Of a DNA stretch of 64,000 nucleotides, positions 21,126 through 64,000 are shown one piece after another; within the stretch, counting starts at the first letter, position 1, and each line of letters begins with the position of its first letter. Source of the stretch: an uncultured bacterium (GTDB lineage: Bacteria > Fidelibacterota > Marinisomatia > Marinisomatales > UBA1611); the NCBI GenBank assembly GCA_963933175.1, contig CAWVTW010000001.1:143-64142 (forward strand), given 5' to 3'. Made by a program: the position numbers and the translations under genes. The notes beneath the pieces are model-generated. The model saw nothing but the letters and a program-made list of their open reading frames with translations. It did no database searches and was not told the DNA's origin.

Positions 21126-21161
21126 CCGCCAAGTTTACATAGAGATAAGGATTTTTTTGGA

Positions 21162-23771: not shown

Positions 23772-23859
23772 ATTTATTATTAAGATATTAGAGTTAGTCA
23801 TTAAAACTTAAGAAGAAATGTGACATCTTTTTCGTAAGAGAAACTTAAAAAATATTTTA

Positions 23860-25197: not shown

Positions 25198-25271
25198 TGC
25201 AAACGGTCTAACCTGGTCTCTAACCACAATCGAAACGGTGTGTTATTATATTGATGGTGGAAAATTATTAT

Positions 25272-27093: not shown

Positions 27094-27570
27094 ATCCAAA
27101 TCTACCCAACATCCCACAAACAATAAACCCCACTAACCTTATTAATTGTTTACTATTCCTTCCACATTATCCTGTATGGTATTCAATTTTTTAAATACAA
27201 ATCCAAATGTCATACTGGTACAGAATAGGATTACCCAAAGCATAGCAGTCATCGATTTTAATTTCTTTTCGAGACCATCTAAGCGCTCCTCCATTATTAA
27301 CTCCTTGTTAAATAATAACCCATATTACAAAATTTTGTTCAAGAATGTGTGTCAGCCTTTTTCTTTTGCACTACCCCACCTTACTTGCATCCTACCCTAA
27401 CACTTTTTAGTTAAACTAAATGGCCAGTGAATCTTGTTTGTTTTTGATAACCTATTCGTTAGCGCTAAAAATAAATATTGTTTTAACCTATTTAGTAAGA
27501 AATCTTTTTTAACTAATTTAAATTCAATAAACCAAATCATTCAATTAGATGAAAATCATGTTCAAACAAT

Positions 27571-49389: not shown

Positions 49390-50315
49390 CTCTGCTTTTG
49401 ATGTCCTAAGATATAGAGAAATTCCAAAACAATACTAGCACCTGCTAAAGATGTAATATCTGCATGATCGTAGGCTGGGGCTACTTCAACCAAATCAAAT
49501 CCAACAATATTTAGATCTTTTACCCCTCTTAAGATTTTCAAGACCTTATCTGTGGACATCCCGCCAACAACTGGTGTCCCTGTTCCCGGCGCATATGCCG
49601 GATCCAAACAATCAATATCAAATGTCAAATAAACAGGCATTTCCCCTACACGTGACTGAATCGATTCAATAATCTCCATTGCAGAAATATCATTTGCCTT
49701 AGCTGCATCGATTACTTGAAATTCATGCGAATCCTTTTCGTACTCTGTCCGAATTCCAATTTGGATTGAATGTGCAGGATCGATCAATCCTTCATTGGGA
49801 GCGTGATAAAACATACAACCGTGGTCAATTTCATGATCATTGGGATAGGTATCTGTATGGGCATCAAAATGAACCAGAGCCATTTTGCCGTGGTGCTTAT
49901 AATGAGCTCTAAGCAAGGGTAAGGTCACAAAATGGTCACCGCCTATCGATATAAGCGTTTTTCCTGCTTCAATGATGATACCAGCATGTTTTACAATTTC
50001 TGATAACCCATCATACGGCTTTCCTGGCGTATAATCCACATCGCCATAATCCACAACATTTAACCTATCGAATACATCAAAATCCCAGGGCCAGCGTTTA
50101 TCTTCCCATCCGAGATTGCTACTGGCATTTCGTACAGCGGAGGGGCCAAACCGTGTTCCGGATCGTCCTGTTGTGGCCAAATCAAATGGAATTCCCATTA
50201 TCACTGCATCAACATTGCTGGATAAATCTCGAGTTAATGGACGCGCCAGATAACTGAATTGATTCGCGTACATGGATATATCTGTAGGATTACCTATGAG
50301 CCTATTTTTTGCCAT
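49386..50315 (-). CDS. speB: agmatinase (ureohydrolase family)
   Basis: GGDHFVTLP, FDAHTDTY, TFDIDCLDPAYAPGTGTP and GFDLVEVAP are arginase/agmatinase Mn-site motifs. 309 aa. Confidence 0.88.
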   Translation of the reverse strand: MAKNRLIGNPTDISMYANQFSYLARPLTRDLSSNVDAVIMGIPFDLATTGRSGTRFGPSAVRNASSNLGWEDKRWPWDFDVFDRLNVVDYGDVDYTPGKPYDGLSEIVKHAGIIIEAGKTLISIGGDHFVTLPLLRAHYKHHGKMALVHFDAHTDTYPNDHEIDHGCMFYHAPNEGLIDPAHSIQIGIRTEYEKDSHEFQVIDAAKANDISAMEIIESIQSRVGEMPVYLTFDIDCLDPAYAPGTGTPVVGGMSTDKVLKILRGVKDLNIVGFDLVEVAPAYDHADITSLAGASIVLEFLYILGHQKQS

Positions 50316-50381
50316 TAGATTTCTTTTCCATATGTTTTAATTACGGGAGTGTAAAGTAAGATTATACCACCATGCAACGTT

Positions 50382-51086
50382 TTATCTGTGGTTTTGTTGA
50401 GATAACATCCAATCCAGCACATCAGGGTTTTGATATGTTTCAGTCCATGAATCATGTCCGATACCTTCATAAATAGTCAAATGTACATTTGGATTGATTT
50501 GGTCAAGAATTCCAAACGCATCCAACGAGTTTTTCACTAGAATAACTTGGTCTTGATCTCCATGGAAAATCCAAGTGGGAATATCTTTCATTTTGTGGAT
50601 TGTTTTTAAATCTGCTACACCACAGACTGGGAGAGCAGCAGCTATTTTATGTGGGATTTTTGATGCCAAAGCGTAAGTGCCATAACCACCCATACTCAAG
50701 CCAGTCACATAAAAACGTTCTGTATCCACATTAAATTTTTGAAAACAAGATTTTTGGATTGCAATGAGCCCATCCACCAATTCCGAGTCACTCCAGTAGC
50801 GATCAAGAGGACATTGTGGAGCAACCAAAATAAAAGGGAAATCTGTTCCTGCTTTTGCCTGTTTTGGAAAACCATGAATGTCCACCAAATCAATATTTCT
50901 CCCCCGTTCTCCTGCGCCGTGGAGAGATAAGACCAAAGGCAATTTACCTGAAAGTCCATCTGGCATATACACAACATACTCCAAATTCATACCTGATTGC
51001 GTGTGGATTGAGTGAAAAGATTTTATCATAGGCGCTGCCATAGTAAATTGAAAAAATATAATTAAGTTTATGAGTGTTCGAACCAA
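50382..51086 (-). CDS. secreted alpha/beta-hydrolase (carboxylesterase/phospholipase-type)
   Basis: GLSMGGYG (GxSxG nucleophile elbow), FHGDQDQVI (Asp) and GIGHDSW (His). Confidence 0.7.
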   Translation of the reverse strand: MVRTLINLIIFFQFTMAAPMIKSFHSIHTQSGMNLEYVVYMPDGLSGKLPLVLSLHGAGERGRNIDLVDIHGFPKQAKAGTDFPFILVAPQCPLDRYWSDSELVDGLIAIQKSCFQKFNVDTERFYVTGLSMGGYGTYALASKIPHKIAAALPVCGVADLKTIHKMKDIPTWIFHGDQDQVILVKNSLDAFGILDQINPNVHLTIYEGIGHDSWTETYQNPDVLDWMLSQQNHR

Positions 51087-51319: not shown

Positions 51320-52906
51320 TTATTTCTCTTCTGATAAAATAATGGGTTTGTATCCACCATTTTTTTTAAACCATAACATCATCAAAGCAAAACCGATTAC
51401 CATAGATATGGGTAACCATGTCGCTACTCGAAGTGTACTACGTCCTGTTTGAGATAAGGTAGCTTTTAAAGTTTCTTTACCTTCTTCAGGAAACTCAGGT
51501 TGAGCCATAATGGCATCATGTTTAATTGTGCTATACCCTACACCAAACAAGTTAGTTTCTGCAACAATAAGAGCACCATCAACCATTCGATTTTCAGATT
51601 GAATTTTTTGCACTAGCGCTGGTTGAGCCTCTAAAACTGCTACAGCATTATAGTGATCCTGTACGGCACCTAAAAATGGAAAGCCAAAGATACCTACAGT
51701 AAGAAGCCCAATTGCTGAAACAGTATTCAATGTAAGTGCGCCACCTTTGGGGAATCTTTCCGCAACAAAACCTAAAACTGAAGGCCAATAAAATGTCTGC
51801 CCCACTGCATAAAATACGAAGGCTAAAAGAACAGCTACACCGCTTACATATGAAAGGGTAAATAAACCAATAATGGAAAATATTGAGCTAATTAGCAATA
51901 GTCCTAATGGCCCGGTATATTTAAGAGGAATACCCGCAAAAAAACGAAGAACCATCATAATACCTGCAGAAAACACCAACGCCCAACCAGCATAATCGCC
52001 CATAGTAGGTCTCATAAGATTTTGAATCCAGCCATCTGTAGCAATTTCAGCAGTAGCCAAAGGAATCATTAGTAAACATATAAAGAAGAACATCAACTTC
52101 CCTTTCGATTTGACAATTGATCCAAATATAATACCACCAGCAATTCCCAATAATAAAGAAATAAACAGACGAGTATATGATTCCGCAAAACCATTACTAA
52201 ACATACTCAATTGAGAAAAAAATTCGTACCCCATAAATGTAATGGCAAGAAAAGCACCTAATCCACCAAATTCTTCAAGCATTCCTGACATGGGTATCTC
52301 ATTTTCAACACGCTCGTCTATAGGGAATTTTTTGCAAAGAGCAAACATTACACCATAAGCAAGGATAGGCATTAGCATAAAAATCCAAGCAGATTTAGCA
52401 CCAGCCCAAATACGCTCATCAGCAGGGGTTCCCATGTAAAACAATAAAAAAATAGCGCCACCAAAAACAATACCTGCAGGCCAGGAAGCATGAAGAATGT
52501 TCAATGCCTTAGTTTTCTCTTCACGAAATACAGATACACATAAAGGGTTGATAACGGCTTCAACTACGCCATGCCCAATACCTGCAGTAATACAGGCCCA
52601 CCACATTGAATTATAATTTTCTGCTGTAAAAGTTAAAAAAACTGAGAGACTTTGGAATATAAAAGCAATAACCATAGATTTTTGATAGCCAATTTTATCC
52701 ACGACAAAACTAAAAAGGATCATCATAATGGCAACGGGCCAGAGCCCTGCTCCCAAAAGAACACCCACTTGGCTGTCAGAAATGCCAAATTCAGCTCCCC
52801 ATAATGCAGGCACCATAGCTCGGAACACAAATCCCACACCTGCGGCCATGAGTGCTAAAAAACTAGCCCACAAAAGCATTTGTTTTTCTTTATTTCTAAG
52901 TTCCAT
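51320..52906 (-). CDS. MFS-type transporter (528 aa), substrate unknown
   Basis: Multiple hydrophobic helices throughout. It lies 134 nt downstream of the organophosphate operon on the same strand. Confidence 0.65.
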   Translation of the reverse strand: MELRNKEKQMLLWASFLALMAAGVGFVFRAMVPALWGAEFGISDSQVGVLLGAGLWPVAIMMILFSFVVDKIGYQKSMVIAFIFQSLSVFLTFTAENYNSMWWACITAGIGHGVVEAVINPLCVSVFREEKTKALNILHASWPAGIVFGGAIFLLFYMGTPADERIWAGAKSAWIFMLMPILAYGVMFALCKKFPIDERVENEIPMSGMLEEFGGLGAFLAITFMGYEFFSQLSMFSNGFAESYTRLFISLLLGIAGGIIFGSIVKSKGKLMFFFICLLMIPLATAEIATDGWIQNLMRPTMGDYAGWALVFSAGIMMVLRFFAGIPLKYTGPLGLLLISSIFSIIGLFTLSYVSGVAVLLAFVFYAVGQTFYWPSVLGFVAERFPKGGALTLNTVSAIGLLTVGIFGFPFLGAVQDHYNAVAVLEAQPALVQKIQSENRMVDGALIVAETNLFGVGYSTIKHDAIMAQPEFPEEGKETLKATLSQTGRSTLRVATWLPISMVIGFALMMLWFKKNGGYKPIILSEEK

Positions 52907-53040: not shown

Positions 53041-53838
53041 TTATTTTTTAAAATCTATATAATCATAAACCTTGTCAGTGTTTATTAAATCAACACCAGC
53101 GGAAGTCATAATCTCCCAGCTAATCTTATTATCTGGTGATCCCCAAAACCTTATCTCTTTATTCTCTGAGTGAACTTTTTGAATAAAACTTTTTAATAAA
53201 AGAAGTTCATTTTCAGGAAAATAACCCACCCCATCCCACTTGAAATTTTCTTTCCAATTTGAACTAATTAGAGGAATTAATTTGTTAGATATATGTTGAC
53301 CAATATCACTAAAGCGACCGTCAATGAATACATTTCTTTTCTTGATAGTTTTTAAGTCAATTATTCCTGGTCTATTTCCGGAGATGATAATTGTTACAGC
53401 CCTAGAAATTAAAGAGTCAGATTCAACATAGCTTAGCATAGGTTCGTAATTATCTAATACTTTCTGTAAAGTTGAATATGTTTCTATTGCCGATGTTTTT
53501 ATATCCACTAGAAGATATAGTGAAATATTATTTTCATATATGTGACCATTGTTACTTAAAAACAACTCCCATAGAGGATCCAAGTATAAGGTCTCTATAG
53601 TTCTACCTTTTTTTAATTGTAAACGATTATGACCAACATACAATTTAGTTTTTGATAAGAATACATCTACCTCGATACTTTTAAAGTTGTTTTTTAAAGC
53701 AGCTACTAATGGTTCTTTATTGAGATAATCATTATGAGAATGAGCATTATTTACATATCCTTGTCCAAATGCAATATTAAATAAGCTAATCTGAAATATT
53801 GAAACGTATAAAAAGAGAACTATAATATTTGAAGCCAT
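53041..53838 (-). CDS. secreted PLC-like/GDPD-superfamily phosphodiesterase (AIM6-like)
   Basis: Signal peptide, then NNAHSHNDYLNKEPL..AL...FKSIEVDVF, the HSHNDY ... E.D motif I associate with the AIM6/PI-PLC-X-like phosphodiesterase family. Confidence 0.6.
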   Translation of the reverse strand: MASNIIVLFLYVSIFQISLFNIAFGQGYVNNAHSHNDYLNKEPLVAALKNNFKSIEVDVFLSKTKLYVGHNRLQLKKGRTIETLYLDPLWELFLSNNGHIYENNISLYLLVDIKTSAIETYSTLQKVLDNYEPMLSYVESDSLISRAVTIIISGNRPGIIDLKTIKKRNVFIDGRFSDIGQHISNKLIPLISSNWKENFKWDGVGYFPENELLLLKSFIQKVHSENKEIRFWGSPDNKISWEIMTSAGVDLINTDKVYDYIDFKK

Positions 53839-53840
53839 AA

Positions 53841-55187
53841 TTAATCTTCAGTTTTTTTATTCCATAGAGCAAGTGAAAGTATAAATGAAACAATAGAAGC
53901 AAAAACCCAGAATATTATTGCATCATCAAAATTATATAATAATGCAGACGTATCGTTTACTGTAGATGTTTTTATTAGTAAGCTACTTATTTTTTCCTGT
54001 AATCCAGCTCCTATGTAACTAAACAGCCCTATAAAACCCATTGCTGCACCAGAAATATTTTTTGGGGCAATATCAATAGCAAATAATCCACCTAGAACAG
54101 CCAACAAACCACTCAAGGTAAATCCATAGATTAAAAATGCGATTGTAAGCACAACCGTTGAGTCTGGTCCAAAAAATATAAGAAAAAGTGATGCAATTTC
54201 AACTATACCGAACATAAGAGTGACGGGCGGTCTTCGCGCATCAAAATATTTATCAGAAATAAATCCATAAGCAACACAGCCAAGAATCCCCGTGAATGTA
54301 TTTAATCCAATTAAACTTCCCGCCTCAATTAATGAGTAACCTCTTGCCTCTTGTAAATAAAGAATTCCCCAACTGTTTATGGCGTATCTAGTAACGTACA
54401 TTGTTGAGCTTGCCAATCCCAAGATCCAAATCGACGGATACTTAACTATCTTTAACTGATTGTTTAGCACTTCTTTGAAATTCTTTGAAACTAGTTTTAA
54501 ATCTGTTTCTTTTTTCCAGGAGCTAATGCTTGGTAGGCCTAAACTTTTTGGACTATCCTGTAAAAATCTATAACCAATAGCCGTTACGATAATTAGCAAT
54601 ATACCAGGGACAATAAACCCGGACCTCCAAGAAAAATAATCTACAAGTGCAGCTGTACCAATAAATGTAAGCCCTTCTCCAATTGAGTGTGCCGTGCTCC
54701 AGATGCCATAATAACGGCCGCGTTCTTTTGGGCTAAACCAATTAGTTAGTGCTATGGCGCACGATGGAGCACCAATACCCTGCACCCAACCATTTATAAA
54801 CCAAAAAATCACCCATAAGATTAGCGACTGATTTAACCCCATAGAGATATTGATTAAGCCAGAAGCAATTAGCCCAAAAGTAAAAAACCTTTTTATATTA
54901 GCATAATCGGCTAAAAAACCATTAAAAAATTTACCAAGCGCATACCCGTAAAAGTATGCAGACCCCACTAAGCCAAGTTCACTAATCGAAAATATACCGT
55001 TATCAATTAGAGGTTTTTTTACGATAGAAAGAGCTAATCTGCAGGTATATCCAAACCCATATAAAACAATAATTGAAGCAAGAACTTCTTTTCGATACTT
55101 CGAATATTGAGAAGCTATTTGATTTTGATCAACTAACGGAGCTCGATATTCATCCGCTTTGAAAAAATTTAGAATCTTAGTGGACAT
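53841..55187 (-). CDS. organophosphate:phosphate antiporter, GlpT/UhpC family (MFS)
   Basis: 448 aa. The N-terminus (..YSKYRKEVLASIIVLYGFGYTCRLALSIVKKPL...S..ELGLVGSAYFYGYALGKFFNGFLADY) fits the GlpT/UhpC pattern. Confidence 0.75.
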   Translation of the reverse strand: MSTKILNFFKADEYRAPLVDQNQIASQYSKYRKEVLASIIVLYGFGYTCRLALSIVKKPLIDNGIFSISELGLVGSAYFYGYALGKFFNGFLADYANIKRFFTFGLIASGLINISMGLNQSLILWVIFWFINGWVQGIGAPSCAIALTNWFSPKERGRYYGIWSTAHSIGEGLTFIGTAALVDYFSWRSGFIVPGILLIIVTAIGYRFLQDSPKSLGLPSISSWKKETDLKLVSKNFKEVLNNQLKIVKYPSIWILGLASSTMYVTRYAINSWGILYLQEARGYSLIEAGSLIGLNTFTGILGCVAYGFISDKYFDARRPPVTLMFGIVEIASLFLIFFGPDSTVVLTIAFLIYGFTLSGLLAVLGGLFAIDIAPKNISGAAMGFIGLFSYIGAGLQEKISSLLIKTSTVNDTSALLYNFDDAIIFWVFASIVSFILSLALWNKKTED

Positions 55188-56611
55188 TAATTGTCTAACT
55201 GAAAACAGAAAGAATGCTGAAGCGGATCACCAACAGTGTTTAATACAAATTCACCTTTATAATTTTTTATTTTCCATGTCACACATAATTCATCACCACC
55301 ATCATCATCAACTTCCATAATACCATATTGACCTCTTACTCCACTTACACCATTTGAATATGGTCCACCTTTAATACTAGGTCTACGATCCAGAGGACCT
55401 GCGTGTAGTATAGGAATAGGTGCGCCTCCTCCTTTAGCATAATCACTATTTGTGCCATCATCAATTGCACTCATGTGTGCATCCCCACTGACAATGCAAA
55501 TAGGGATATCATTTTGCTTAATAAAATTTGCAATATCTTCCCTCTCCTCAGGGTACCATCCCCAATTATCATGATCATCACACTCAAAGCCTTTATTTGT
55601 CTTAATAGTATTTTCATCATCACAATTAAACCACCCTAGATCTGGAGTACTCAAGTATGGAAAACTAGAATGCCATACAACAGCTAGATTTTCATTTTTT
55701 GCATCTAGCAGCTCTTGTTTAAACCAATCCAAATGCTCTTTTGTACCGAAATTTGTGCCTTGTTTAACTTTATTACAATTAGAAGGATTATCACTGTCAC
55801 AGTCACCCTGAAATAAAGGCCTACTTTTTTCTGACCTTAAATCAGTAAGAATATATTTCACTCTACCCACTTTAAATGTTTGCGAGATAACCGCATCTTC
55901 CCCTTGGAAAGCTAAAGGATAATGAGGAACATAATTTCTATAGGATTCTTTCGCAACAGAGCGGCACGCAACTTTTCCATCTTGATTTGGAGATAGCCCA
56001 GAACTATTATTCGGACCATAGTCATGATCGTCCCACATATAAGCTACAGGAGTACTCTTATATAATTTAGATTGTTTTGTTGAACCCAAAGCTGCATTAT
56101 AGTGTGCTAAAAACTCATCATCACAATCTTTATAAATATTTCCATAGTGAAAATCACCAAGCATTAAATAAAACAAAGACTCTTCCTCTCTAATACGATC
56201 ATAGACAGGGTGGTTAGACCCTGTATTAGCACATGTTGCAAGGGTGATTTTATAAGAAAATGGAGAGCTGGAAGGAGTGCTGAATTCTCCTAACATATTA
56301 GACTCTTTATCAACGACACCATTAACAATAAACCTATAATAATACTCAGTTGCCGGTTCAAGATCTGAGAGAGTTATCTTAGAAAAATAATTTAATTCTT
56401 CCAGAGTCTGTACACTCTCAGACAAAAACCTATCCTTTCTAAAGTTTTTTTTATCACTATACTCTATTTTAATATCGGCCTCAGAACTACTTGATAGAGA
56501 TATTACCGCACTATTTTCTAATAATGACCCCGACCAAAAATTAACAATATCAGACGCCCAAACTCGGCTAGTTATAAAAAAGAATGAAAAAACAATAATC
56601 CGAACGTTCAT
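55187..56611 (-). CDS. PhoD-like secreted phosphatase/phosphodiesterase
   Basis: Signal peptide and Fn3-like PhoD_N region. Metallophosphatase motifs are MLGDFHYGN, WDDHDYGPNN and VSGDAHMSAIDDG. Confidence 0.8.
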   Translation of the reverse strand: MNVRIIVFSFFFITSRVWASDIVNFWSGSLLENSAVISLSSSSEADIKIEYSDKKNFRKDRFLSESVQTLEELNYFSKITLSDLEPATEYYYRFIVNGVVDKESNMLGEFSTPSSSPFSYKITLATCANTGSNHPVYDRIREEESLFYLMLGDFHYGNIYKDCDDEFLAHYNAALGSTKQSKLYKSTPVAYMWDDHDYGPNNSSGLSPNQDGKVACRSVAKESYRNYVPHYPLAFQGEDAVISQTFKVGRVKYILTDLRSEKSRPLFQGDCDSDNPSNCNKVKQGTNFGTKEHLDWFKQELLDAKNENLAVVWHSSFPYLSTPDLGWFNCDDENTIKTNKGFECDDHDNWGWYPEEREDIANFIKQNDIPICIVSGDAHMSAIDDGTNSDYAKGGGAPIPILHAGPLDRRPSIKGGPYSNGVSGVRGQYGIMEVDDDGGDELCVTWKIKNYKGEFVLNTVGDPLQHSFCFQLDN

Positions 56612-56614
56612 TTG

Positions 56615-57379
56615 TTACTCCAACATGTTTTCAAAAGGTTTTTTATATGTAAAGCCATCATATCTGTTATTATCATCATGCTTTATTGCCCAGAGATAAT
56701 ACATATAAAATCCAGGTGCAGATGTCTGGCTATGGACCCTCCCACCTGTGATAGATAAGATATCACCATTTTTTATTTTATATACGTCTTCGCCAAGTTC
56801 ACCATGACCATACCCCCATTTAGGAGACAATTCATAATAATATAATTCTGATTGAGAATGATGATGAGGCGGGTAGCTACTCCACTTTCCGGGAAAATTG
56901 AGTACTTCTCCAATTACAAGTTTAGATTCTGGCGGAGTGATAGTTCCATCAAAAGCTAATCGAACTAATCTGTAGCAAGTATCATCTAACTGATCTTTTC
57001 CTCTATGCTCCGTATCTATATTATCTGGGAAATAAATTTTCCCTTTAAATTGATTGCTGTTAATAGTTTTAACAATTGCGACTCGAGTCTTTAATGTTGC
57101 ACTTATTGTAGTCGTTTCACTTGGAGCCATGTGAACAACGGTTGGGTCATAATCAACCCAATTAGGTCTATTAAAAGACAATTGGCTATCTTCAAATGTA
57201 ATAGTTCCAGCACCTTCAATAATTACCAGAGCTATTTCTTTATCTTTATCAGAGATTTCAAAGGTATCTCCATCATCCATTATTAGAATATCAAAATCCA
57301 TACCTGTTTCATCTTGTGTCTCTTGGTATGGATTTATCCCTTTAGTAAATCCAGACCTATAAAGTTTAATTAAGCCCAT
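56615..57379 (-). CDS. iolB: 5-deoxy-glucuronate isomerase
   Basis: Cupin core GKWSSYPPHHHS...ELYYY matches B. subtilis IolB GNWSSYPPHKHD...ETYYH (from memory). 254 aa, in iol context. Confidence 0.8.
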   Translation of the reverse strand: MGLIKLYRSGFTKGINPYQETQDETGMDFDILIMDDGDTFEISDKDKEIALVIIEGAGTITFEDSQLSFNRPNWVDYDPTVVHMAPSETTTISATLKTRVAIVKTINSNQFKGKIYFPDNIDTEHRGKDQLDDTCYRLVRLAFDGTITPPESKLVIGEVLNFPGKWSSYPPHHHSQSELYYYELSPKWGYGHGELGEDVYKIKNGDILSITGGRVHSQTSAPGFYMYYLWAIKHDDNNRYDGFTYKKPFENMLE

Positions 57380-57386
57380 AAATCCC

Positions 57387-58451
57387 CTATTTGTTAATCA
57401 TTCTATCTCGAACAATATTAGCAAACTCATCATAACCCAATAAAAAATTTCTCATTGTATGTTTCGTTGGCCCAAACGATTCAAAATCATTAATTCCCAT
57501 ACCATTCTCATGGTATGCCTTATTAAAATCTTCAAAATTTTCTTTTAGAGTACCAATAATTTCCTCATCAACAGGGATGTTTATTTTATTTTCAACATTG
57601 ATTTCTGAGTTGTTAAATTTATTCCACCAATCATAAGGCATGCTAATAATAACATCCCCACCAACGATTTCAGACCAATGTAAATCACACCGAAAAGCGG
57701 CAGCTAATAACTTAGAATTGTATCCTCTTTCTTGAAATATATTATAAGCATTCTTGAAGATAGCAATAGAAGCCCAATCTATCATTTCAGAACTAACATC
57801 AATATTATTTTCTTCTTTTTTACGCTTCAAATGATCGTCGATACGTCCAACCATAATAGTAACATATGGAGTTAGATTTGTTATATCAATACCTTTATCA
57901 TTTGCGAGAGCAATGCCTCGCTCTACCGCCTCAGCTACTTGAATGGTTTGAGAAACTGAAAAACTTACAGTAGCATTAATTGATATACCATGAGATGTTA
58001 ATTTTTCCATCGCTTCAATGCCAGCAGGAAGAGCAGGACATTTAATAGCAATATTTGGTGCTAGAGATGCTAGATACTTACCCTGCTCAAACATAGCATC
58101 GGCATTCCTATAATATTTAGGGTTGACCTGAAGTGAAAGTTTACCTTTTTCCCCTTTTGTATCATGATAAACTGGTAATAAAATATTGGCTGCTCTTTTT
58201 CCAACCTGGTCCATTAGAAGCCATAAAATTTCATCCTCAGAGGCAGTATGATTACTAGCAATCAGCTTATCAATCACAGGCAACCATGTTTTTGGATGAT
58301 TTTTAACAGTATTCAGTGTTATTACGGGATTAGATGTGGCACCTACTGCCCCCTCTTCATATGCATGTTGTAATTCAACATGATCATTGGAGTCATTCCA
58401 CCAGTCTGATCCTAATTCAGTGGCTTGTTGCATTTTAGTTTTTTCTTTCAT
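57387..58451 (-). CDS. transaldolase-family protein embedded in the iol operon
   Basis: GATSNPVI, LSLQVNP, the Schiff-base lysine context NIAIKCPA, and INATVSFS are transaldolase/FSA class-I aldolase motifs. 354 aa. Confidence 0.75.
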   Translation of the reverse strand: MKEKTKMQQATELGSDWWNDSNDHVELQHAYEEGAVGATSNPVITLNTVKNHPKTWLPVIDKLIASNHTASEDEILWLLMDQVGKRAANILLPVYHDTKGEKGKLSLQVNPKYYRNADAMFEQGKYLASLAPNIAIKCPALPAGIEAMEKLTSHGISINATVSFSVSQTIQVAEAVERGIALANDKGIDITNLTPYVTIMVGRIDDHLKRKKEENNIDVSSEMIDWASIAIFKNAYNIFQERGYNSKLLAAAFRCDLHWSEIVGGDVIISMPYDWWNKFNNSEINVENKINIPVDEEIIGTLKENFEDFNKAYHENGMGINDFESFGPTKHTMRNFLLGYDEFANIVRDRMINK

Positions 58452-58452
58452 T

Positions 58453-59343
58453 CTAGTTATTCCAAATAGTATTTAAATAATTTCTTGAGCGTATTGCATA
58501 TTCAAGTGGGTTTGCAATTTCCGGATCCTGTTCTGCTTCAATAATAACCCAACCAGTATAATTTGATTTAATAATTATTTTACTAATCTCAGAAAAATCT
58601 ATACAACCATCACCAGGCACGGTAAATGCTCCTTTGAGAACAGACTTTAAAAATGAATCTGTTTCAGATTTAATATCCTTGAATACATCATGCCTCACAT
58701 CTTTGAAATGGATATGTTTAATGCGATTCATATTTTTTTTAAAAAATTCAATTGGATTTATTCCTGCAAAATATAAATGACCAGTATCAGCACACAGGTT
58801 TACGCGGTCTGGGAGAGTATCAGATAGTAGTCTGTTGATTTCATCTTCTGTCTGAACATAGGTTCCCATATGATGGTGATAAGCGAGATCTAAATCAAAA
58901 GAGTTACATAATTCTCCAGCTTTGTTTAAGGAACTTGTGAGCCTGTCCCAATCTTGATCATTACAAACTAGCTTATTTGATAAAGGGCTATTTAATTCGC
59001 TGTGAACTGAACCAGAGCATTCTGCTATATTAATTACTTTGGCTCCCGCATCACGAAGAAGCAAAACCTTTTTTTTAATATTTTCTAATTCAATATCAAG
59101 ATCATTTGATAGGAAAAAAGTGGAATGCCATGAAGAAGCAAGTTCTAAATCGAATTTTTTTAATGCTTCTTTTATTAGAACAGCTTCTTTCGGGAATTTA
59201 TTCCCTATTTCAGTACCACTGTATCCTGCTTGCGACATTTCTGAAAGTATAGTTTGTAGAGTATAGCTACCACCTAGCTCATGCATATCATCATTACTCC
59301 AATTAATTGGAGCGATTCCAAATTGAACTCTATTATTAGCCAT
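58453..59343 (-). CDS. iolE: inosose dehydratase
   Basis: N-terminal VQFGIAPINWSNDDMHELGG matches the IolE hallmark (GIAPI.W.NDD). Xylose-isomerase-like TIM barrel. The ATG at 59343 leaves 1 nt after the iolD stop. Confidence 0.85.
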   Translation of the reverse strand: MANNRVQFGIAPINWSNDDMHELGGSYTLQTILSEMSQAGYSGTEIGNKFPKEAVLIKEALKKFDLELASSWHSTFFLSNDLDIELENIKKKVLLLRDAGAKVINIAECSGSVHSELNSPLSNKLVCNDQDWDRLTSSLNKAGELCNSFDLDLAYHHHMGTYVQTEDEINRLLSDTLPDRVNLCADTGHLYFAGINPIEFFKKNMNRIKHIHFKDVRHDVFKDIKSETDSFLKSVLKGAFTVPGDGCIDFSEISKIIIKSNYTGWVIIEAEQDPEIANPLEYAIRSRNYLNTIWNN

Positions 59344-59344
59344 A

Positions 59345-61201
59345 CTAGAAATTTCTCTCATCTTTTATTTTTTCATCATAATCTGATCTTACTTTAGATA
59401 CCTTTTCTGATGAAGAGACCTCAGCAACGGGGACATCCCACCAAGATTCGTAACCAGGTACTTTAATACTAGGATCTACTAGAATCTCTATTAACGTTGA
59501 TAATTCACTCTCCCTGGCATTTTTTAGAGCATCATTAAATTCCTGTTTGGTATTAACTGTTTGAGCATTAATTCCCATAGACCTAGCATGAGCTGCATAA
59601 TCGACAGGAAGCTCACCCCCCGTATAGCTATCTGTTTCACTATCTCTGTATCGATATTGATTCCCGAAACCATTACTACCCAAACTCATAGACAAGCTAT
59701 TAATACTACCAAAACCATTATTATTAACTAATATAATAATAAGCTTTTGATCTTCTTGCACAGCAGTAACAATTTCAGAATTCATCATCAAATATGACCC
59801 ATCTCCAACCAAAACCAGAACTTCTCCAGATTTTTTTGCAAAACGTATACCAAGCCCTCCGGCAATTTCATACCCCATACATGAGTATCCATACTCCATA
59901 TGGTATTGATCACCATTTATTGTTCGCCATAGTTTATGCATATCTCCAGGCAAACTACCCGCAGCACCAATAACAGTATCATCGCTATTCATAGAATCAG
60001 ATAATAAACCAATAACCTCTCCCTGGCTTATATCTGGCTTATTATTAAAATTAAATATTCTATCAACCTCTTTATCCCAACTACCTTTTAAGTTTTGGAT
60101 TTCATTTTGATACTCTTCTGAAACACTAAAGTTAATTTCTTTCAACATACTAGCTAATTGTTCTAAACATACCTTTGAATCCCCAACAATTGGAAGAGCA
60201 GAGTGCTTATATGCATCAAAAGAAGATACATTTATACCAATAAAGGTAACATCCGGATTTTTAAAAAGTGTTTTAGATGCTGTTGTAAAGTCAGATAACC
60301 GTGTCCCTATACAGATAACGAGGTCAGCATCACGAGCAATTATATTTGCAGCACTAGTTCCTGTAACCCCTATTGCACCTAAACAATGACTATTGTTCCA
60401 AGCGATTGCCCCTTTCCCTGCTTGTGTCTCGCCCACAGGTATGCAGGTGTGCCTGCAAAATAAATCAAGGGCTTTCTCAGCTGAAGAATATATTACACCT
60501 CCACCAGCAATAATAACTGGACGAGATGAGTTTTTAATAATATTCACCGACCTTTCTAAAGAATCTTTTATCGGAAGATTCCTGGGAATATTCCAGACCT
60601 TTTTATTAAAAAAGTTTTCTGGATATTCATATGATTCCACTTGGACATCTTGTGGAAGAGATAATGTAACCGCACCAGTGGTAGCAGGATCCGTAAGTAT
60701 TCTCATTGCCTCCGGTAAAGAAGTTAAAATCTGTTCTGGCCTGTTGATTCTATCCCAATAAACACTCACTGGTTTAAAGCTATCATTAACTGAAATATCT
60801 TGAGAACTAGTATATTCCAATTGTTGCAAGACTGGCCCAACATTACGTCTACTAAATACATCTCCAGGCAATAGTAATACAGGAAGTCTATTTATTGTCG
60901 CTCCCGCAGCGGCCGTAACCATATTTGTTGCTCCAGGACCTATGGAACTGGTACATGCAAAAGTCTTCAATCTCCTGTTCTGCTTTGCATACGCAACTGA
61001 TGTATGAACCATCGCTTGCTCATTGCGTGGTAGGAAATGTTTTAATTTTTTATTTTGCTCTAAAGCTTCTCCAATTCCTGCAACGTTTCCATGACCAAAG
61101 ATACCCCACATACCAGAAATGAATTTATTTTCAATACCATCTCTCTCAACAAACTGATTTGCCAAATAATGTACTAATGCTTGGGCCATTGTCATTCTCA
61201 T
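59345..61201 (-). CDS. iolD: 3D-(3,5/4)-trihydroxycyclohexane-1,2-dione acylhydrolase (TPP enzyme)
   Basis: 618 aa. MTMAQALVHYLANQFVERDG....FISGMWGIFGHGNVAGIGEAL is the typical IolD N-terminus. The TPP motif is GDGSYLMMNSEIVTAV....LIIILVNNNGFGSI. Confidence 0.88.
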   Translation of the reverse strand: MRMTMAQALVHYLANQFVERDGIENKFISGMWGIFGHGNVAGIGEALEQNKKLKHFLPRNEQAMVHTSVAYAKQNRRLKTFACTSSIGPGATNMVTAAAGATINRLPVLLLPGDVFSRRNVGPVLQQLEYTSSQDISVNDSFKPVSVYWDRINRPEQILTSLPEAMRILTDPATTGAVTLSLPQDVQVESYEYPENFFNKKVWNIPRNLPIKDSLERSVNIIKNSSRPVIIAGGGVIYSSAEKALDLFCRHTCIPVGETQAGKGAIAWNNSHCLGAIGVTGTSAANIIARDADLVICIGTRLSDFTTASKTLFKNPDVTFIGINVSSFDAYKHSALPIVGDSKVCLEQLASMLKEINFSVSEEYQNEIQNLKGSWDKEVDRIFNFNNKPDISQGEVIGLLSDSMNSDDTVIGAAGSLPGDMHKLWRTINGDQYHMEYGYSCMGYEIAGGLGIRFAKKSGEVLVLVGDGSYLMMNSEIVTAVQEDQKLIIILVNNNGFGSINSLSMSLGSNGFGNQYRYRDSETDSYTGGELPVDYAAHARSMGINAQTVNTKQEFNDALKNARESELSTLIEILVDPSIKVPGYESWWDVPVAEVSSSEKVSKVRSDYDEKIKDERNF

Positions 61202-61220
61202 TCTAGGAGCTTCCGTAATT

Positions 61221-62342
61221 TTATTTACGAATATTGTAAGTATTATTCACTTCAAGTCGTGGTGTAAAAATAGAAGTGATATCCCCCCAAGGAACAGCTT
61301 TATAATTTGTATTATCTTTAGTTCCAGAATTAACATTCGTGTTAACACCATCCTGGACAACAAATATTCCACTGCTAAATTTTCCACCTAAGTTCATATT
61401 GCAAACATCAATACCATCCGTTTCACTTGAACCATCGATAGACATATTATCGGCAATAGAGAATCGTCCAATAAAATCGTTATTCCCTTCACGTTTGTAG
61501 ATAGCATAGGTGTTATCTCCCTGACTAGAAGCAATTAGGTAACCCGTAGAATCTCCGCTATAATATATAGTTAACCCCTCTACATCAGCATAGAGGTTTG
61601 GCCCAATAGTATCTACCAATACGCCAGTAGTTGAACCTTTAGGATCGGCATCAAATTTCCAAATGCCATGATCCTCTTCTCCAATATAAAGCAGGCCTAA
61701 AATATCATCAGCTACACAACCTTCTAATTGCCCTGGGAGCTGTAACGTTCTCACTAATTTTGCATCTACTTTACCATGCCCACCTTCAAAGAGCTCGTAC
61801 TGCTCAACTTTTCCTTCTTTATCATTCACAATTGCATAAAAAACATTACTTGGACTTTTATACATACAAGAACCATACACATCTAACCCTAAAGTTATTT
61901 TTCTTGCTGAAATATTTTCAAGAGAACGCGTCTTAGAATTCATTTTATAGATACCTAGCGAATTGGAGTTTCTTAGTCCGGTGGTTACAACATCTACTAA
62001 AACCCCATCTACTTTCATACCATACCTAAGATCAACATTATTGGCTTTCTCTACTTCTGTTTCAAAAATCTGATGACCTTCTAGATCATACACTCTGAGG
62101 CCAGCTGACTCTTCATCTTTATCTGTTCCAATAATTACAGATAATGACGGATTTGTTGGATGCACCCAGACACAAGGGTCATCTGCAGTATCATCACTAG
62201 CTGGAGTTGGATCAGTTTCTATCGCTGCTGATACTTCACCATTTATTATTCTAATAATTATTTTTTCCGAAGAACAAGCATTCAAAAATAATAGACTAAG
62301 AAGAAAGGTTAATAATTTGAAAGGATTAATAATTGAATACAT
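61221..62342 (-). CDS. beta-propeller phytase (3-phytase, BPP family) lipoprotein
   Basis: Lipobox LFLNACSS. BPP motifs are ADDPCVWVHP, NNVDLRYG, EGCVADDILGLLYIGEEDHGIWKF, VEGLTIYY...GYLIASSQGDNTYAIYKR and SETDGIDV...LG..F..GIFVVQDG.N. Confidence 0.88.
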   Translation of the reverse strand: MYSIINPFKLLTFLLSLLFLNACSSEKIIIRIINGEVSAAIETDPTPASDDTADDPCVWVHPTNPSLSVIIGTDKDEESAGLRVYDLEGHQIFETEVEKANNVDLRYGMKVDGVLVDVVTTGLRNSNSLGIYKMNSKTRSLENISARKITLGLDVYGSCMYKSPSNVFYAIVNDKEGKVEQYELFEGGHGKVDAKLVRTLQLPGQLEGCVADDILGLLYIGEEDHGIWKFDADPKGSTTGVLVDTIGPNLYADVEGLTIYYSGDSTGYLIASSQGDNTYAIYKREGNNDFIGRFSIADNMSIDGSSETDGIDVCNMNLGGKFSSGIFVVQDGVNTNVNSGTKDNTNYKAVPWGDITSIFTPRLEVNNTYNIRK

Positions 62343-62366
62343 TCGAACCTCTTTAAATTGTTATTT

Positions 62367-62382
62367 AATTGTACGTACAATT
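62367..62382. promoter_or_regulatory. perfect 16-bp palindrome AATTGTACGTACAATT, putative operator O1 abutting a TATAAT-like -10 box
   Basis: Read directly. It lies 25 nt upstream of the phytase ATG. The minus strand reads ..TTGGAT-N18-TATAAT followed immediately by the palindrome. Confidence 0.6.
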
Positions 62383-62442
62383 ATAATATAGAAACAAGAT
62401 CACATCCAAACATTAATAAAGGTGAGAAGACGAATTTCAATT

Positions 62443-62458
62443 AATTGTACGTACAATT
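62443..62458. promoter_or_regulatory. second identical 16-bp palindrome AATTGTACGTACAATT, putative operator O2
   Basis: Read directly. It is an exact copy, 76 bp centre-to-centre from O1. Confidence 0.6.
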
Positions 62459-62482
62459 TCATTCAAAAAATAAATGTGTATC

Positions 62483-62516
62483 AAAAAAAAAAGGCATCAA
62501 TTGACACCTTTTTTTT
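62483..62516 (-). terminator. probable rho-independent terminator of the TonB-receptor gene
   Basis: The minus strand reads aaaaaaaaGGTGT-caattg-ATGCCtttttttttt, a 5-bp stem (two G.U pairs) followed by a 10-U run. Confidence 0.5.
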
Positions 62517-62536
62517 AATCAACTTTTGTCTAAAAA

Positions 62537-64000
62537 TTAGAATCTATAGTTTGTTCCAATTTTCACAGTTGGGCCATAGACTTCTTTCTCAACTGGTCTA
62601 CTTACATCTCCCATAAAATAAACATGAGGTACATCTGTAATGTTTAGTACGTCTGCAAAGAAAGTAAGTTTATTGTTAAAGTTGTAACTCAGCGAGAAAT
62701 CTAACCGATTAGCCGGATCATAATAAATATCTTCATCTTTATCTTCACCAACTTCTGTTATGTACTTGTCAGCAATAGATTGTGAAAATCTTGCCGTTAG
62801 TTTACTAGTTTCATAAGCAAAACTAAGGTTTCCTGTATTCGCAGCTTGCCCAGGAAAGGTCGTTTTCTCACGCTCAGGACCATAGTCGGCTTCCGAGGAT
62901 GTAGATGTATAGTTTAAATAAAGTAAAAGATTACTCAATGGTCCAGGTAAAAAATCTAGATTCTTTTGAAAATTCATTTCCCAACCACTTAGAGTAGCAG
63001 CTTCTCCATTAACAGGCATAACTACCTCATCATATACTTTAGCACCATCACGTATTGTTTCATCTTTAAGAACTGCTGTATAGATATAGTTATCAATCGC
63101 CTTACTAAAATAGCCAAAAGAAAAGATTCCTAAGCCTTTTGGATAATACTCTAGCATAAGGTCAATATTTTTTGAATGGGCCGATTCAAGCTCTGGGTTT
63201 CCTGCTTCAGCATCATCACCATCAGTAGCAACAAATGGCACCAATGCAGCAAAGTCTGCTCTTGCGATAGTTTCAGTATAGGCTGCGCGGACCAGGGTTC
63301 TATCATTAACAGCATAGCGAACGTGTGCCATCGGAAGCACATCTGTATAATCCTTAGATACATTTTGTGCTGTAAAAAATGAATCAATACTTGTCGGTAT
63401 ATCATACCCACCATCTTCAGCATCTTCCACATTTCCTAACCAAGATTTATACGTGCTAGATGTATTTTCCATTCTAGCCCCGCCGATAAAGTTCAACTTA
63501 CCCATCTTCATGTCAGCCATGCCATAGAACGCAATAATATCTTCAGTAGCGTCCCACGTTTCAAGGATAGCATCTTCATATAGCGGTAAGATCTCATACG
63601 ATCCAATATTTGCACTCATGTGGTCACGTATTTTCTTAACGTCTATACCATGTGTGTGCACATAGTTACCTTCCATATACTTTTCACCATCAATCTCCAT
63701 GCTGAAATCTTTCATCAAAAGGTCGTCATCACCATCCCACCCCCAGACTTCACCGCCTTTTTTATCTGATTTTTTTTCCTTAGAAGATAGTTTTGCACCC
63801 ATCTTTATTTTTCCATTGGCACTTCCAAGAGCAAGCGGCACAGAAAGGTTAAAGGCCAGAACCTGATCATCGCCTGATACTAAGTTTCCGTTTGGATTTT
63901 TAGCGTCAGGTATATAGTCGCCCTCAATCTCAATCTCATCTAGCTCATAGCTTGAGAGATCATGCTGGTCGAACGCTGCTCCATCTTCATCAGTAAAGTT
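62537..64000 (-). CDS. TonB-dependent receptor, C-terminal barrel portion (N-terminus beyond the right window edge)
   Basis: The track ORF starts at a GTG (63841), but the frame stays open to base 64000. The beta-barrel pattern ends in the terminal ..TVKIGTNYRF (aromatic C-terminus). Confidence 0.8.
   Translation of the reverse strand, partial: NFTDEDGAAFDQHDLSSYELDEIEIEGDYIPDAKNPNGNLVSGDDQVLAFNLSVPLALGSANGKIKMGAKLSSKEKKSDKKGGEVWGWDGDDDLLMKDFSMEIDGEKYMEGNYVHTHGIDVKKIRDHMSANIGSYEILPLYEDAILETWDATEDIIAFYGMADMKMGKLNFIGGARMENTSSTYKSWLGNVEDAEDGGYDIPTSIDSFFTAQNVSKDYTDVLPMAHVRYAVNDRTLVRAAYTETIARADFAALVPFVATDGDDAEAGNPELESAHSKNIDLMLEYYPKGLGIFSFGYFSKAIDNYIYTAVLKDETIRDGAKVYDEVVMPVNGEAATLSGWEMNFQKNLDFLPGPLSNLLLYLNYTSTSSEADYGPEREKTTFPGQAANTGNLSFAYETSKLTARFSQSIADKYITEVGEDKDEDIYYDPANRLDFSLSYNFNNKLTFFADVLNITDVPHVYFMGDVSRPVEKEVYGPTVKIGTNYRF

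Follow-up and report, generated by a model that had tools for sequence, protein, structure and literature searches.

The phytase–iol locus and its gene products

The DNA analysed here (the window) is a stretch of 64,000 nucleotides of contig CAWVTW010000001.1 (GenBank assembly GCA_963933175.1, positions 143 to 64,142 of the forward strand) from an uncultured bacterium of the order Marinisomatales. Its end carries a TonB-dependent receptor gene and an eight-gene block encoding a beta-propeller phytase, enzymes of myo-inositol catabolism, a transaldolase-family protein, two further predicted phosphoesterases and an antiporter. Family-level gene identities, synteny, operator conservation and the active-site pattern were computed, and all functions were assigned from sequence. 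With a probability of about 0.6, we propose that the locus could be one arm of a co-regulated regulon through which marine Marinisomatota (SAR406) would convert phytate and other inositol phosphates to central metabolites, the transaldolase-like enzyme ending the pathway. The gene for the latter, left uninterpreted by the original prediction, is the most unusual element of the locus. All genes of the locus lie on the minus strand, where they had been placed before:

62537..64000, minus strand: TonB-dependent receptor, C-terminal 487 residues (N-terminus beyond the window end)
62483..62510, minus strand: terminator-like hairpin (62491-62510) and T-run (62483-62490), directly past the receptor stop codon
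62444..62457, no strand: distal palindrome ATTGTACGTACAAT, 14 bp, perfect, a putative operator
62368..62381, no strand: proximal palindrome ATTGTACGTACAAT, overlapping a TATAAT hexamer (62380-62385, minus strand)
61221..62342, minus strand: beta-propeller phytase with lipoprotein-type signal (PF02333)
59345..61201, minus strand: iolD, 3D-(3,5/4)-trihydroxycyclohexane-1,2-dione acylhydrolase (TIGR04377)
58453..59361, minus strand: iolE, myo-inosose-2 dehydratase (TIGR04379)
57387..58451, minus strand: Q-type transaldolase-family protein, 354 aa (PF00923)
56615..57379, minus strand: iolB-like gene, KduI/IolB family isomerase (PF04962)
55187..56611, minus strand: exported PhoD-like metallophosphatase (PF09423, PF16655)
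53841..55187, minus strand: antiporter of the organophosphate:phosphate antiporter (OPA) family within the major facilitator superfamily (MFS), GlpT/UhpT/UhpC-like (match to GlpT 1pw4)
53041..53838, minus strand: exported 265-aa phosphodiesterase of the glycerophosphodiester phosphodiesterase (GDPD)/sphingomyelinase-D/phospholipase C-like TIM-barrel superfamily (predicted structure)
51320..52906, minus strand: 528-aa MFS protein (PF07690, 59 bits), 134 nt downstream

The eight genes from the phytase to the 265-aa phosphodiesterase are separated by 19, -17, 1, 7, 3, -1 and 2 nt, the value of -17 between iolD and iolE becoming +1 nt if iolE begins at its second ATG, and 194 nt lie between the receptor stop codon and the phytase gene. 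The receptor and the eight-gene block were recovered as originally predicted, each gene call holding at the family or superfamily level in hidden Markov model (HMM) or structure comparisons; by HMM, the phytase, IolD and IolE calls were confirmed, and those of PhoD and IolB at the family level only. The IolD and IolE proteins scored as equivalogs (918.4 bits with TIGR04377, cutoff 715, over the full length, and 381.5 bits with TIGR04379, cutoff 290). The iolB-like product belongs to the broad KduI/IolB family (PF04962, 151 bits, cutoff 23.9), and a function as 5-deoxy-glucuronate isomerase, backed by synteny, is probable. According to the N-termini read from the translations, the iol and transaldolase-like proteins have no export signal, and the phytase, PhoD-like and GDPD-like proteins all carry N-terminal signals, consistent with the periplasmic phosphate removal that had been predicted.

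The receptor fragment matched PF00593 (104 bits) and TIGR01782 (TonB-Xanth-Caul, 259 bits) on its C-terminal half. The full-length receptor, encoded on a contig of the same strain (L005), has 967 aa with CarboxypepD_reg, Plug and barrel domains; of the plug and 22-strand barrel expected of a TonB-dependent receptor, the barrel is encoded in the window and the plug on L005.

The predicted phytase scored 350.3 bits with PF02333 (cutoff 21), covering positions 10-371 of the 375 in the profile, and its residues 37-366 matched the Bacillus phytase (1poo/2poo) with E = 3.6e-81, which makes this assignment secure; its N-terminus is a lipoprotein-type signal (…LLFLNAC-SS). The PhoD-like protein contains the Pfam domains PhoD (PF09423, 52.3 bits, cutoff 27) and PhoD_N (PF16655, 33.5 bits, cutoff 30). 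It scored 29.3 bits with NF058638, far below the equivalog cutoff of 1000, and is distant from solved PhoD structures (PDB matches 9uya, 36 bits, and 2yeq, 24.6 bits). Its N-terminus, MNVRIIVFSFFFITSRVWASD, is a Sec-type signal (…RVWA-SD) with no twin-arginine motif; PhoD of Bacillus subtilis has a twin-arginine export signal. In every locus of the first of two Marinisomatota clades (clade 1), the PhoD-like gene follows iolB as a constant partner of the phytase, and it is reasonable to assign to its product a putative role in finishing the dephosphorylation of lower inositol phosphates.

The antiporter matched GlpT (1pw4) with E = 1.1e-46, and its arginines align with the two substrate-binding arginines of GlpT in transmembrane helices 1 and 7, R45 and R269 ('ytcRlal'/'yylvRknf' and 'yvtRyains'/'yllRygild'). 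All subfamily scores were below their cutoffs: 280 versus 564 for UhpC, 248 versus 408 for PgtP and 218 versus 633 for GlpT.

The 265-aa product of the last gene found no match in a PDB sequence search and scored below the threshold of Pfam GDPD_2 (25.5 bits, cutoff 27), over its C-terminal 29 residues only. Its AlphaFold model (pLDDT 91) was matched by Foldseek to 4q6x, 9yd8, 3ch0, 1zcc and 1vd6 with a probability of 1.0, TM-scores of 0.49-0.56 and, for the first four, E-values of 1e-6 to 1e-4, the best neighbours being sphingomyelinase D/phospholipase D and glycerophosphodiester phosphodiesterases. Residues H33, H35, N36, D37, Y38, E56, D58, H70 and K114 are invariant. The model places the protein in the GDPD superfamily, and the invariant His, Glu, Asp and Lys residues fit a metal-dependent phosphodiesterase. 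The gene of a 40%-identical homolog in a 4.46-Mb genome (L076, 8001-14053) immediately precedes those of a TonB-dependent receptor and a 689-aa metallophosphoesterase, and the family may work generally with outer-membrane organophosphate uptake.

The further MFS gene reported 134 nt downstream is present. It is not conserved in relatives, and nothing ties it to the unit: the gene was found only on contigs of the same strain (L001-L006), and relatives have iolA or other genes at this place. Its product gave no match in a PDB sequence search. Inclusion of this gene in the unit is doubtful.

Regulation and conservation of the locus in Marinisomatota

A terminator and a promoter had been predicted between the receptor and phytase genes. 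A consensus promoter/terminator scan of the window yielded counts equal to the shuffled expectation and missed the hairpin; both the hairpin and the operators were found by reading the receptor–phytase gap and were then tested separately. The hairpin at 62491-62510, flanked by an A-run and a T-run, folds as RNA at -14 kcal/mol (z = -4.76), a value matched by none of 200 shuffles. This fold makes a terminator reasonable, while the consensus signals stand at chance level.

The palindrome ATTGTACGTACAAT has just two matches, both exact, in the 64 kb with up to two mismatches allowed, against 0.24 expected by chance, and its proximal copy precedes the phytase start by about 25 nt. Relatives have the motif AATTGTAYRTACAATT upstream of the phytase gene and between the receptor gene and a divergently transcribed regulator gene. 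Both sites bear it in L007, L013, L016, L019 and L078, and a third copy, cut by the start of the contig, lies 60 nt before the receptor gene on L005, a contig of the window's own strain. The relatives' regulator pairs a winged helix of the GntR type with a sugar-binding domain of the LacI type. Since the same conserved palindrome lies upstream of both, the receptor and the operon would share control, and one sugar- or cyclitol-responsive repressor probably governs them via the palindrome ATTGTAYRTACAAT. With this common operator, the receptor and the phytase–iol operon do not appear as unrelated transcription units, in agreement with their original description as one module.

The genes iolG, iolC, iolJ and iolA, previously noted as not visible in the window, were indeed not found when searched for across its 64 kb. 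The only PfkB-family kinase gene, at 11769-12737, was considered as iolC and rejected, its product being the heptose kinase RfaE. Where the window breaks off, the corresponding DNA of relatives continues with the regulator gene and then with those of two IolG paralogues (357.5 and 390 bits, cutoff 355; second copies, 346-351 bits). The presence of these two iolG genes a short way upstream of the receptor in close relatives gives the lineage a route for converting inositol to inosose. The relatives' iolG genes are followed by those of a sugar-type ABC importer, whose binding protein has a rhizopine (inositol-derivative) binding protein as its best match. Several relatives also have iolA, encoding a CoA-acylating malonate/methylmalonate-semialdehyde dehydrogenase, downstream of the 265-aa gene (505 bits, cutoff 448).

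The divergent operon continues past iolG in L078 (1-3991; also L010, 1-894) with the ABC importer, a beta-hydroxyacid dehydrogenase similar to HIBADH and tartronate-semialdehyde reductase, an IolE/IolI-like TIM barrel without an NCBIfam match, and a TRAP transporter. The HIBADH-like family includes sulfolactaldehyde reductase, and the dehydrogenase of the divergent operon might reduce malonate semialdehyde. In the clade-1 relatives L007 (18206-19303), L015 and L016, iolA and the gene of an Alginate_exp-family outer-membrane protein are soon followed, on the opposite strand, by a glycerate kinase gene.

At least 22 metagenome contigs, mostly from Tara Oceans and all alike in gene order, encode a transaldolase-like protein 100% identical to that of the window, and identical gene order was seen on at least six independent metagenome contigs. 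Named homologs come from metagenome-assembled genomes (MAGs) of Candidatus Neomarinimicrobiota/Marinimicrobia (SAR406). Markers of type IX secretion system (T9SS) elsewhere in the window are consistent with a bacterium of the Fibrobacteres–Chlorobi–Bacteroidetes (FCB) group; a gene for a GH53 endo-galactanase with a T9SS C-terminal sorting domain (25729-27123, minus strand) supports this origin and suggests the use of plant or algal galactan. Relatives with a transaldolase-like protein 69-72% identical to that of the window retain the receptor, phytase, iolD, iolE, transaldolase-like, iolB and PhoD-like genes. Because the gene order recurs both on independent contigs and in these relatives, the arrangement is not due to chance, and the comparative-synteny check suggested at the outset thus found it conserved in Marinisomatota MAGs and beyond a single assembly. 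The antiporter and 265-aa genes occur in some relatives and are missing from L010 and L011.

The receptor gene is an assembly breakpoint: contigs L001-L006, which carry the identical operon, all end within it or just upstream, and the 31 receptor homologs found in the databases are likewise all fragments. The breakpoints suggest strain-level hypervariability of the receptor protein or its upstream region. A contig labelled "Gammaproteobacteria bacterium MED855" (L019, PAEL01000104.1) contains the regulator, iolG, receptor, phytase and iol genes of the Marinisomatota MAGs, and its transaldolase-like protein shares 69% identity with that of the window; it is probably mis-binned or mislabelled.

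With three exported phosphoesterases and a receptor, one could regard the locus as mainly phosphorus-scavenging (Pho-type), ring catabolism being a side benefit, and phytase–receptor pairs elsewhere have been interpreted as serving phosphorus acquisition (PMC3400609). However, the regulator linked to the locus carries a sugar-binding domain of the LacI type, the operator is common to iolG and the sugar-type ABC importer, and five of the eight operon genes were counted as encoding cytoplasmic carbon-catabolic enzymes. Moreover, an organophosphate:phosphate antiporter brings no net phosphorus for monoesters, an established property of GlpT. Pho-type control was not found, no search aimed at a Pho box having been made. 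We consider a primarily phosphorus-directed function improbable.

The antiporter and phosphodiesterase genes raise another question, namely whether the main substrates could be phosphoinositide head groups (glycerophosphoinositol) and not phytate, the pair freeing inositol and importing glycerol-3-phosphate or inositol phosphate. In Escherichia coli glpTQ, the antiporter gene is directly beside the phosphodiesterase gene, and here, likewise, the gene of an OPA antiporter is followed after 2 nt by that of an exported GDPD-superfamily enzyme. The resemblance is limited, since the antiporter scores 218 bits versus a GlpT cutoff of about 632, and the phosphodiesterase is just distantly GDPD-like (TM about 0.5). 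L010 and L011 also retain the receptor, phytase, iol and PhoD-like genes without the pair, which is therefore regarded as accessory to a phytase-centred core. Glycerophosphoinositol as the main substrate is thus unlikely, though less so than the phosphorus-directed alternative, and as an extra substrate, by analogy with glpTQ, it is plausible. The import of partly dephosphorylated products, as originally proposed, is possible but not favoured, since the inositol-type ABC importer of relatives, under the same operator, makes the import of free inositol at least as likely.

The transaldolase-family protein and its clade

The only Pfam match of the transaldolase-like protein is PF00923 (TAL_FSA, 146.5 bits), and all NCBIfam transaldolase models scored below their cutoffs, the best being NF002881 with 119.8 bits versus 367. 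Its predicted structure has the long-type transaldolase fold, with a Foldseek TM-score of 0.84 to the transaldolase of Corynebacterium glutamicum (3r5e), followed by Neisseria transaldolase (0.80). The protein has relatively few close homologs, only 175 proteins being found at E <= 1e-30 among 1.84 billion representatives.

For active-site comparison, 58 relatives identified in a scan of species-representative genomes were aligned with E. coli TalB and fructose-6-phosphate aldolase (FSA), the sequences of both being verified against the PDB. The Schiff-base lysine (TalB K132) corresponds to K137 and is invariant in 58/58 relatives, and the equivalents of TalB D17, N35, N154, T156, R181 and R228 are likewise kept in all 58, which represent more than 10 phyla; in the window protein, the conserved residues include K137, D20, R203 and R254. 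The protein thus shares with TalB and FSA the fold, the Schiff-base lysine, the equivalents of Asp17, Asn35 and Thr156, and both arginines that bind the distal anion.

The residues that organise the catalytic water are different. The catalytic Glu96 of TalB is replaced by Gln108 in all 58 relatives, a change that sets the protein apart from transaldolases. Glutamine occupies this position in 117 of 124 aligned representatives, and glutamate was found in none of the best 150 of the 175. Gln108 aligns with Q59 of FSA, as expected for an FSA-type enzyme, but the position of TalB Phe178 and FSA Tyr131 is taken by an invariant Met200 and lacks the FSA tyrosine. Met200 ends the strand 196-200, just before V-G-R203, within the invariant motif TIMVGRIDD; it was chosen because the HMMER alignment to 3r5e, this motif and the predicted strand boundary agree. 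A MAFFT placement of Tyr196 at the position of FSA Tyr131 was rejected, since this tyrosine is Val in most phyla. The catalytic-water triad is therefore Gln-Thr-Met in this clade, Glu-Thr-Phe in transaldolases and Gln-Thr-Tyr in FSA, with Gln108 and Met200 standing for Glu96 and Phe178 of TalB and for Gln59 and Tyr131 of FSA. Exchanging the residues that organise this water is reported to convert aldolase into transaldolase activity and vice versa (Stellmacher et al. 2015, as summarised in PMC13259622).

The protein is also longer (354 aa) than the short FSA subunit (about 220 aa), and its nearest structures are of the long type. Homology to the known aldolases of 2-deoxy-5-keto-D-gluconate (DKG) 6-phosphate (class II aldolase IolJ, PF01116; DUF2090/LacD-like, PF09863/PF01791) was not found, Pfam yielding TAL_FSA alone. 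We classify the protein neither as a transaldolase, because the catalytic glutamate is absent and the curated models failed, nor as an FSA, because the tyrosine is absent and the architecture is long.

This Q-type clade is small yet spread over more than 10 phyla. Its hosts are Marinisomatota, Opitutales, Bacteriovoracaceae, Latescibacterota, Omnitrophota, Spirochaetia, Rhodothermales, Bacteroidota (Mariniphaga), Acidobacteriota, several Bacillota families (including the cultured Anoxynatronum) and Actinomycetota (Austwickia, Dermatophilus). At least one iol gene was present within seven genes of the transaldolase-like gene in 47 of 60 species-representative loci, and three or more in 27. IolB was the most frequent direct neighbour (28/60), followed by IolE (24/60), and fusions of the transaldolase-like protein with an IolE-like domain (P0241) and with IolB (P0293) were detected.

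These observations bear on the simplest explanation, that an ordinary transaldolase of the pentose phosphate pathway happens to reside in the operon and that the pathway is completed by unlinked iolC and iolJ. The fold and the Schiff-base lysine are those of a transaldolase, and one relative is labelled "transaldolase family protein" by NCBI. Nevertheless, the replacement of the catalytic Glu by Gln throughout the clade, the low score with the best NCBIfam model (119.8 versus 367), the linkage to iol genes in more than 10 phyla, and the fusions to IolE-like and IolB domains make this very improbable, and the housekeeping reading was rejected on the basis of the Glu-to-Gln change, synteny and fusions.

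Several clusters without a kinase or known aldolase gene look complete, namely IolE-IolG-IolA-IolD-IolB-TAL (L061), IolG-IolB-IolD-IolE-TAL-ABC-IolA (L029) and SSF-TAL-IolB-EEP-IolD-IolA-IolE-IolG (L041). Clustering of all neighbours across the loci of the clade revealed no recurrent PfkB/IolC, class II aldolase, DUF2090, DeoC/LacD or dihydroxyacetone (DHA) kinase. The transaldolase-like protein is the probable reason for the absence of iolC and iolJ.

Alternatively, it could replace IolJ alone: a kinase encoded elsewhere, or the PfkB of clade 2, would produce DKG 6-phosphate, and the protein would act as a new class I aldolase yielding dihydroxyacetone phosphate and malonate semialdehyde. DUF2090 provides a precedent for the non-homologous replacement of IolJ (PMC9007349), both anion-binding arginines are kept, and four clade-2 loci have a PfkB-family kinase gene two genes upstream of iolD. 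However, PfkB occurs in only 3 of the 60 species-representative loci, most clusters look complete without a kinase, as exemplified by L061, L029 and L041, and the clade-2 kinase, with 30 bits versus a cutoff of 300, was rejected as IolC. Besides, the end bound as Schiff base in the transaldolase/FSA family is the unphosphorylated one. DKG 6-phosphate carries its phosphate on the DHA end. The anion bound by the conserved arginines is the distal one, in DKG the carboxylate. Replacement of IolJ alone is thus unlikely, albeit far less so than an ordinary transaldolase.

The clade-2 loci (L009, 4417-6133; L023, L026, L027) represent a second Marinisomatota clade without phytase and receptor genes. 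They carry, ahead of iolG, genes for a Na+/solute symporter, a PhnP-like hydrolase of the metallo-beta-lactamase fold and the very divergent PfkB, a kinase that among the loci appears in this clade only. In Mariniphaga (Bacteroidota; L041, 12109-12969), a gene of the Exo_endo_phos family, which includes inositol polyphosphate phosphatases, lies between iolB and iolD, another possible link of this pathway variant to inositol phosphates. In Anoxynatronum buryatiense (L044, 13113-15145), the genes of a PHO4-family phosphate transporter and a HAD (Cof-type) phosphatase follow the iol/transaldolase-like cluster, and an unannotated 284-aa open reading frame (ORF) is present between the transaldolase-like gene and iolB.

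Proposed route from phytate to central metabolites

According to our proposal, the TonB-dependent receptor would carry phytate or lower inositol phosphates across the outer membrane, and the lipoprotein phytase, the PhoD-like phosphatase and the GDPD-superfamily phosphodiesterase would free phosphate and myo-inositol in the periplasm. Inositol could then cross the inner membrane through an importer such as the inositol-type ABC system that relatives encode in the divergent operon, while the antiporter would import an organophosphate by-product, either inositol monophosphate or glycerol-3-phosphate derived from glycerophosphoinositol. In the cytoplasm, IolG would oxidise inositol, IolE would dehydrate the product, IolD would open the ring and the IolB-like isomerase would form DKG, the intermediates up to this point presumably being those of the canonical pathway. 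K137 would next form a Schiff base with the keto group of unphosphorylated DKG, and cleavage between C3 and C4 would release malonate semialdehyde, the DHA unit being passed to glyceraldehyde-3-phosphate (GAP) to give fructose-6-phosphate (F6P) or released as free DHA. A single transaldolase-like enzyme would in this way replace both the IolC kinase and the IolJ aldolase. Finally, malonate semialdehyde would be converted to acetyl-CoA by IolA, which is encoded in the locus of relatives and not in that of this strain.

Read from C6, DKG is CH2OH-CO-CHOH-CHOH-CH2-COO-, and standard stereochemistry gives it the D-threo configuration of F6P at the stereocentres flanking the cleaved bond. Because of this match, DKG may be regarded as an F6P analogue whose carboxylate is the distal anion. 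We lean slightly towards the transferase over the aldolase mode, because the FSA-type tyrosine is absent and no DHA kinase was found in any locus.

By analogy, the protein probably works like 6-deoxy-6-sulfofructose transaldolase (SftT, SF-TAL) of the sulfoquinovose pathway, another transaldolase-family enzyme recruited to a catabolic operon and the best mechanistic model for the gene described here. SF-TAL cleaves a non-phosphorylated anionic analogue of F6P, transferring the C3 ketol to GAP with formation of F6P and releasing a C3 acid aldehyde (PMC7491151). It differs in being of the short type (about 220 aa, 8bc3), compared with the long 354-aa type here, and its substrate is a sulfonate instead of a carboxylate.

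Two enzymes are known for the cleavage step, IolJ and DUF2090, both acting on the 6-phosphate (PMC9007349), and no description of a transaldolase in inositol catabolism was found in the open-access literature. The Q-type clade could represent a third, non-phosphorylative end to myo-inositol catabolism in more than 10 phyla, wired in SAR406 to phytate capture; we give this broader proposal slightly less than even odds.

Several points weigh against the proposed route. Each of its steps rests on comparison of sequences. The active site contains neither the glutamate of transaldolases nor the tyrosine of FSA, which clouds its acid-base chemistry. The iolB-like product scored only 90.4 bits with the IolB equivalog model TIGR04378 (cutoff 205), below equivalog level. 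The strain's own locus lacks iolA, and the genes upstream of the receptor are known from relatives alone. Among the 60 loci, 13 have no iol gene within seven genes, so that the clade may have other substrates, and four Marinisomatota clade-2 loci carry the divergent PfkB kinase beside iolG. Neighbourhoods were derived with a simple ORF finder and phmmer labels based on references from the window, and divergent genes may have escaped. A Pfam scan of 81 unlabelled neighbours, covering the best 25 of 111 families, likewise showed no recurrent PfkB, class II aldolase, DUF2090, DeoC/LacD or DHA kinase. The absence of iolC and iolJ refers to the clusters and the window, and copies elsewhere in the genomes are possible.

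The locus can be compared with several known systems. With the canonical pathway of B. subtilis and Salmonella (IolG, IolE, IolD, IolB, IolC, IolJ and IolA) it shares the IolD and IolE equivalogs and an IolB-family isomerase, as well as IolG and IolA in the locus of close relatives. It differs in that IolC, IolJ and an IolC-DUF2090 fusion are absent from the cluster and the window, a transaldolase-family gene lies between iolE and iolB, and the operon has a phytase, two other phosphoesterases and an outer-membrane receptor connected to it. The receptor–phytase pairing in aquatic bacteria, which the original prediction had mentioned, is documented in marine Citromicrobium, with phytate among the substrates of that transporter cluster (PMC3400609). 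Here, too, the receptor, of the Xanthomonas/Caulobacter type, adjoins the phytase, but the pair is physically and regulatorily joined to ring catabolism, two phosphoesterases and an antiporter.

Such an operonic fusion had been thought unusual, and no description of the combination was found in the open-access literature, which also yielded nothing relevant on phytase–iol operons or on SAR406 in connection with inositol or phytate. Receptor–phytase pairing and iol clusters being known already, two aspects appear to be new, both of them variants of known systems: in SAR406, the linkage of ring catabolism, at the level of operon and operator, to the capture and dephosphorylation of phytate and, more importantly, the substitution, in many phyla, of a distinct Gln-type transaldolase clade for IolC and IolJ.

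Predictions of inositol use from genomes take iolB, iolC, iolD and iolE as core genes (PMC9430895); a pathway that needs neither iolC nor iolJ would be overlooked by them or rated as incomplete. Among 40 inositol-growing isolates, 21 had no recognisable iol cluster, and an unidentified alternative route was proposed (PMC12838507). If our proposal is correct, the ending reaction would be DKG + GAP -> F6P + malonate semialdehyde, or DKG -> DHA + malonate semialdehyde, in a clade spanning abundant ocean SAR406 as well as anaerobic gut and sediment lineages. A natural Gln/Met variant acting on a carboxylate sugar acid would then be a third catalytic solution beside Glu/Phe and Gln/Tyr, and could serve as a biocatalyst. 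Dissolved phytate would be a source of both carbon and phosphorus in the open ocean. SAR406 bacteria are abundant and largely uncultured, and with one co-regulated locus for taking up phytate, removing its phosphates and oxidising the ring, they would have a concrete role in the turnover of dissolved organic phosphorus and carbon.

Just beyond the 528-aa MFS gene, an arginase-family gene and an alpha/beta-hydrolase gene (S9/dienelactone hydrolase-like; 49386-51086, minus strand) are kept in contigs of the same strain, with no evident tie to the operon. Two adjoining genes at 39850-44507 (plus strand) encode proteins of 610 and 942 aa with about six Big_7 bacterial Ig-like repeats each, which are probably surface proteins. 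A run of genes at 15841-25227 (minus strand) encodes a second TonB-receptor-like protein (CarboxypepD_reg and Plug, 704 aa), a 1057-aa protein without a Pfam match, an 879-aa protein with an M14 carboxypeptidase domain and a transglutaminase-core protein, and may be a peptide or protein uptake locus.

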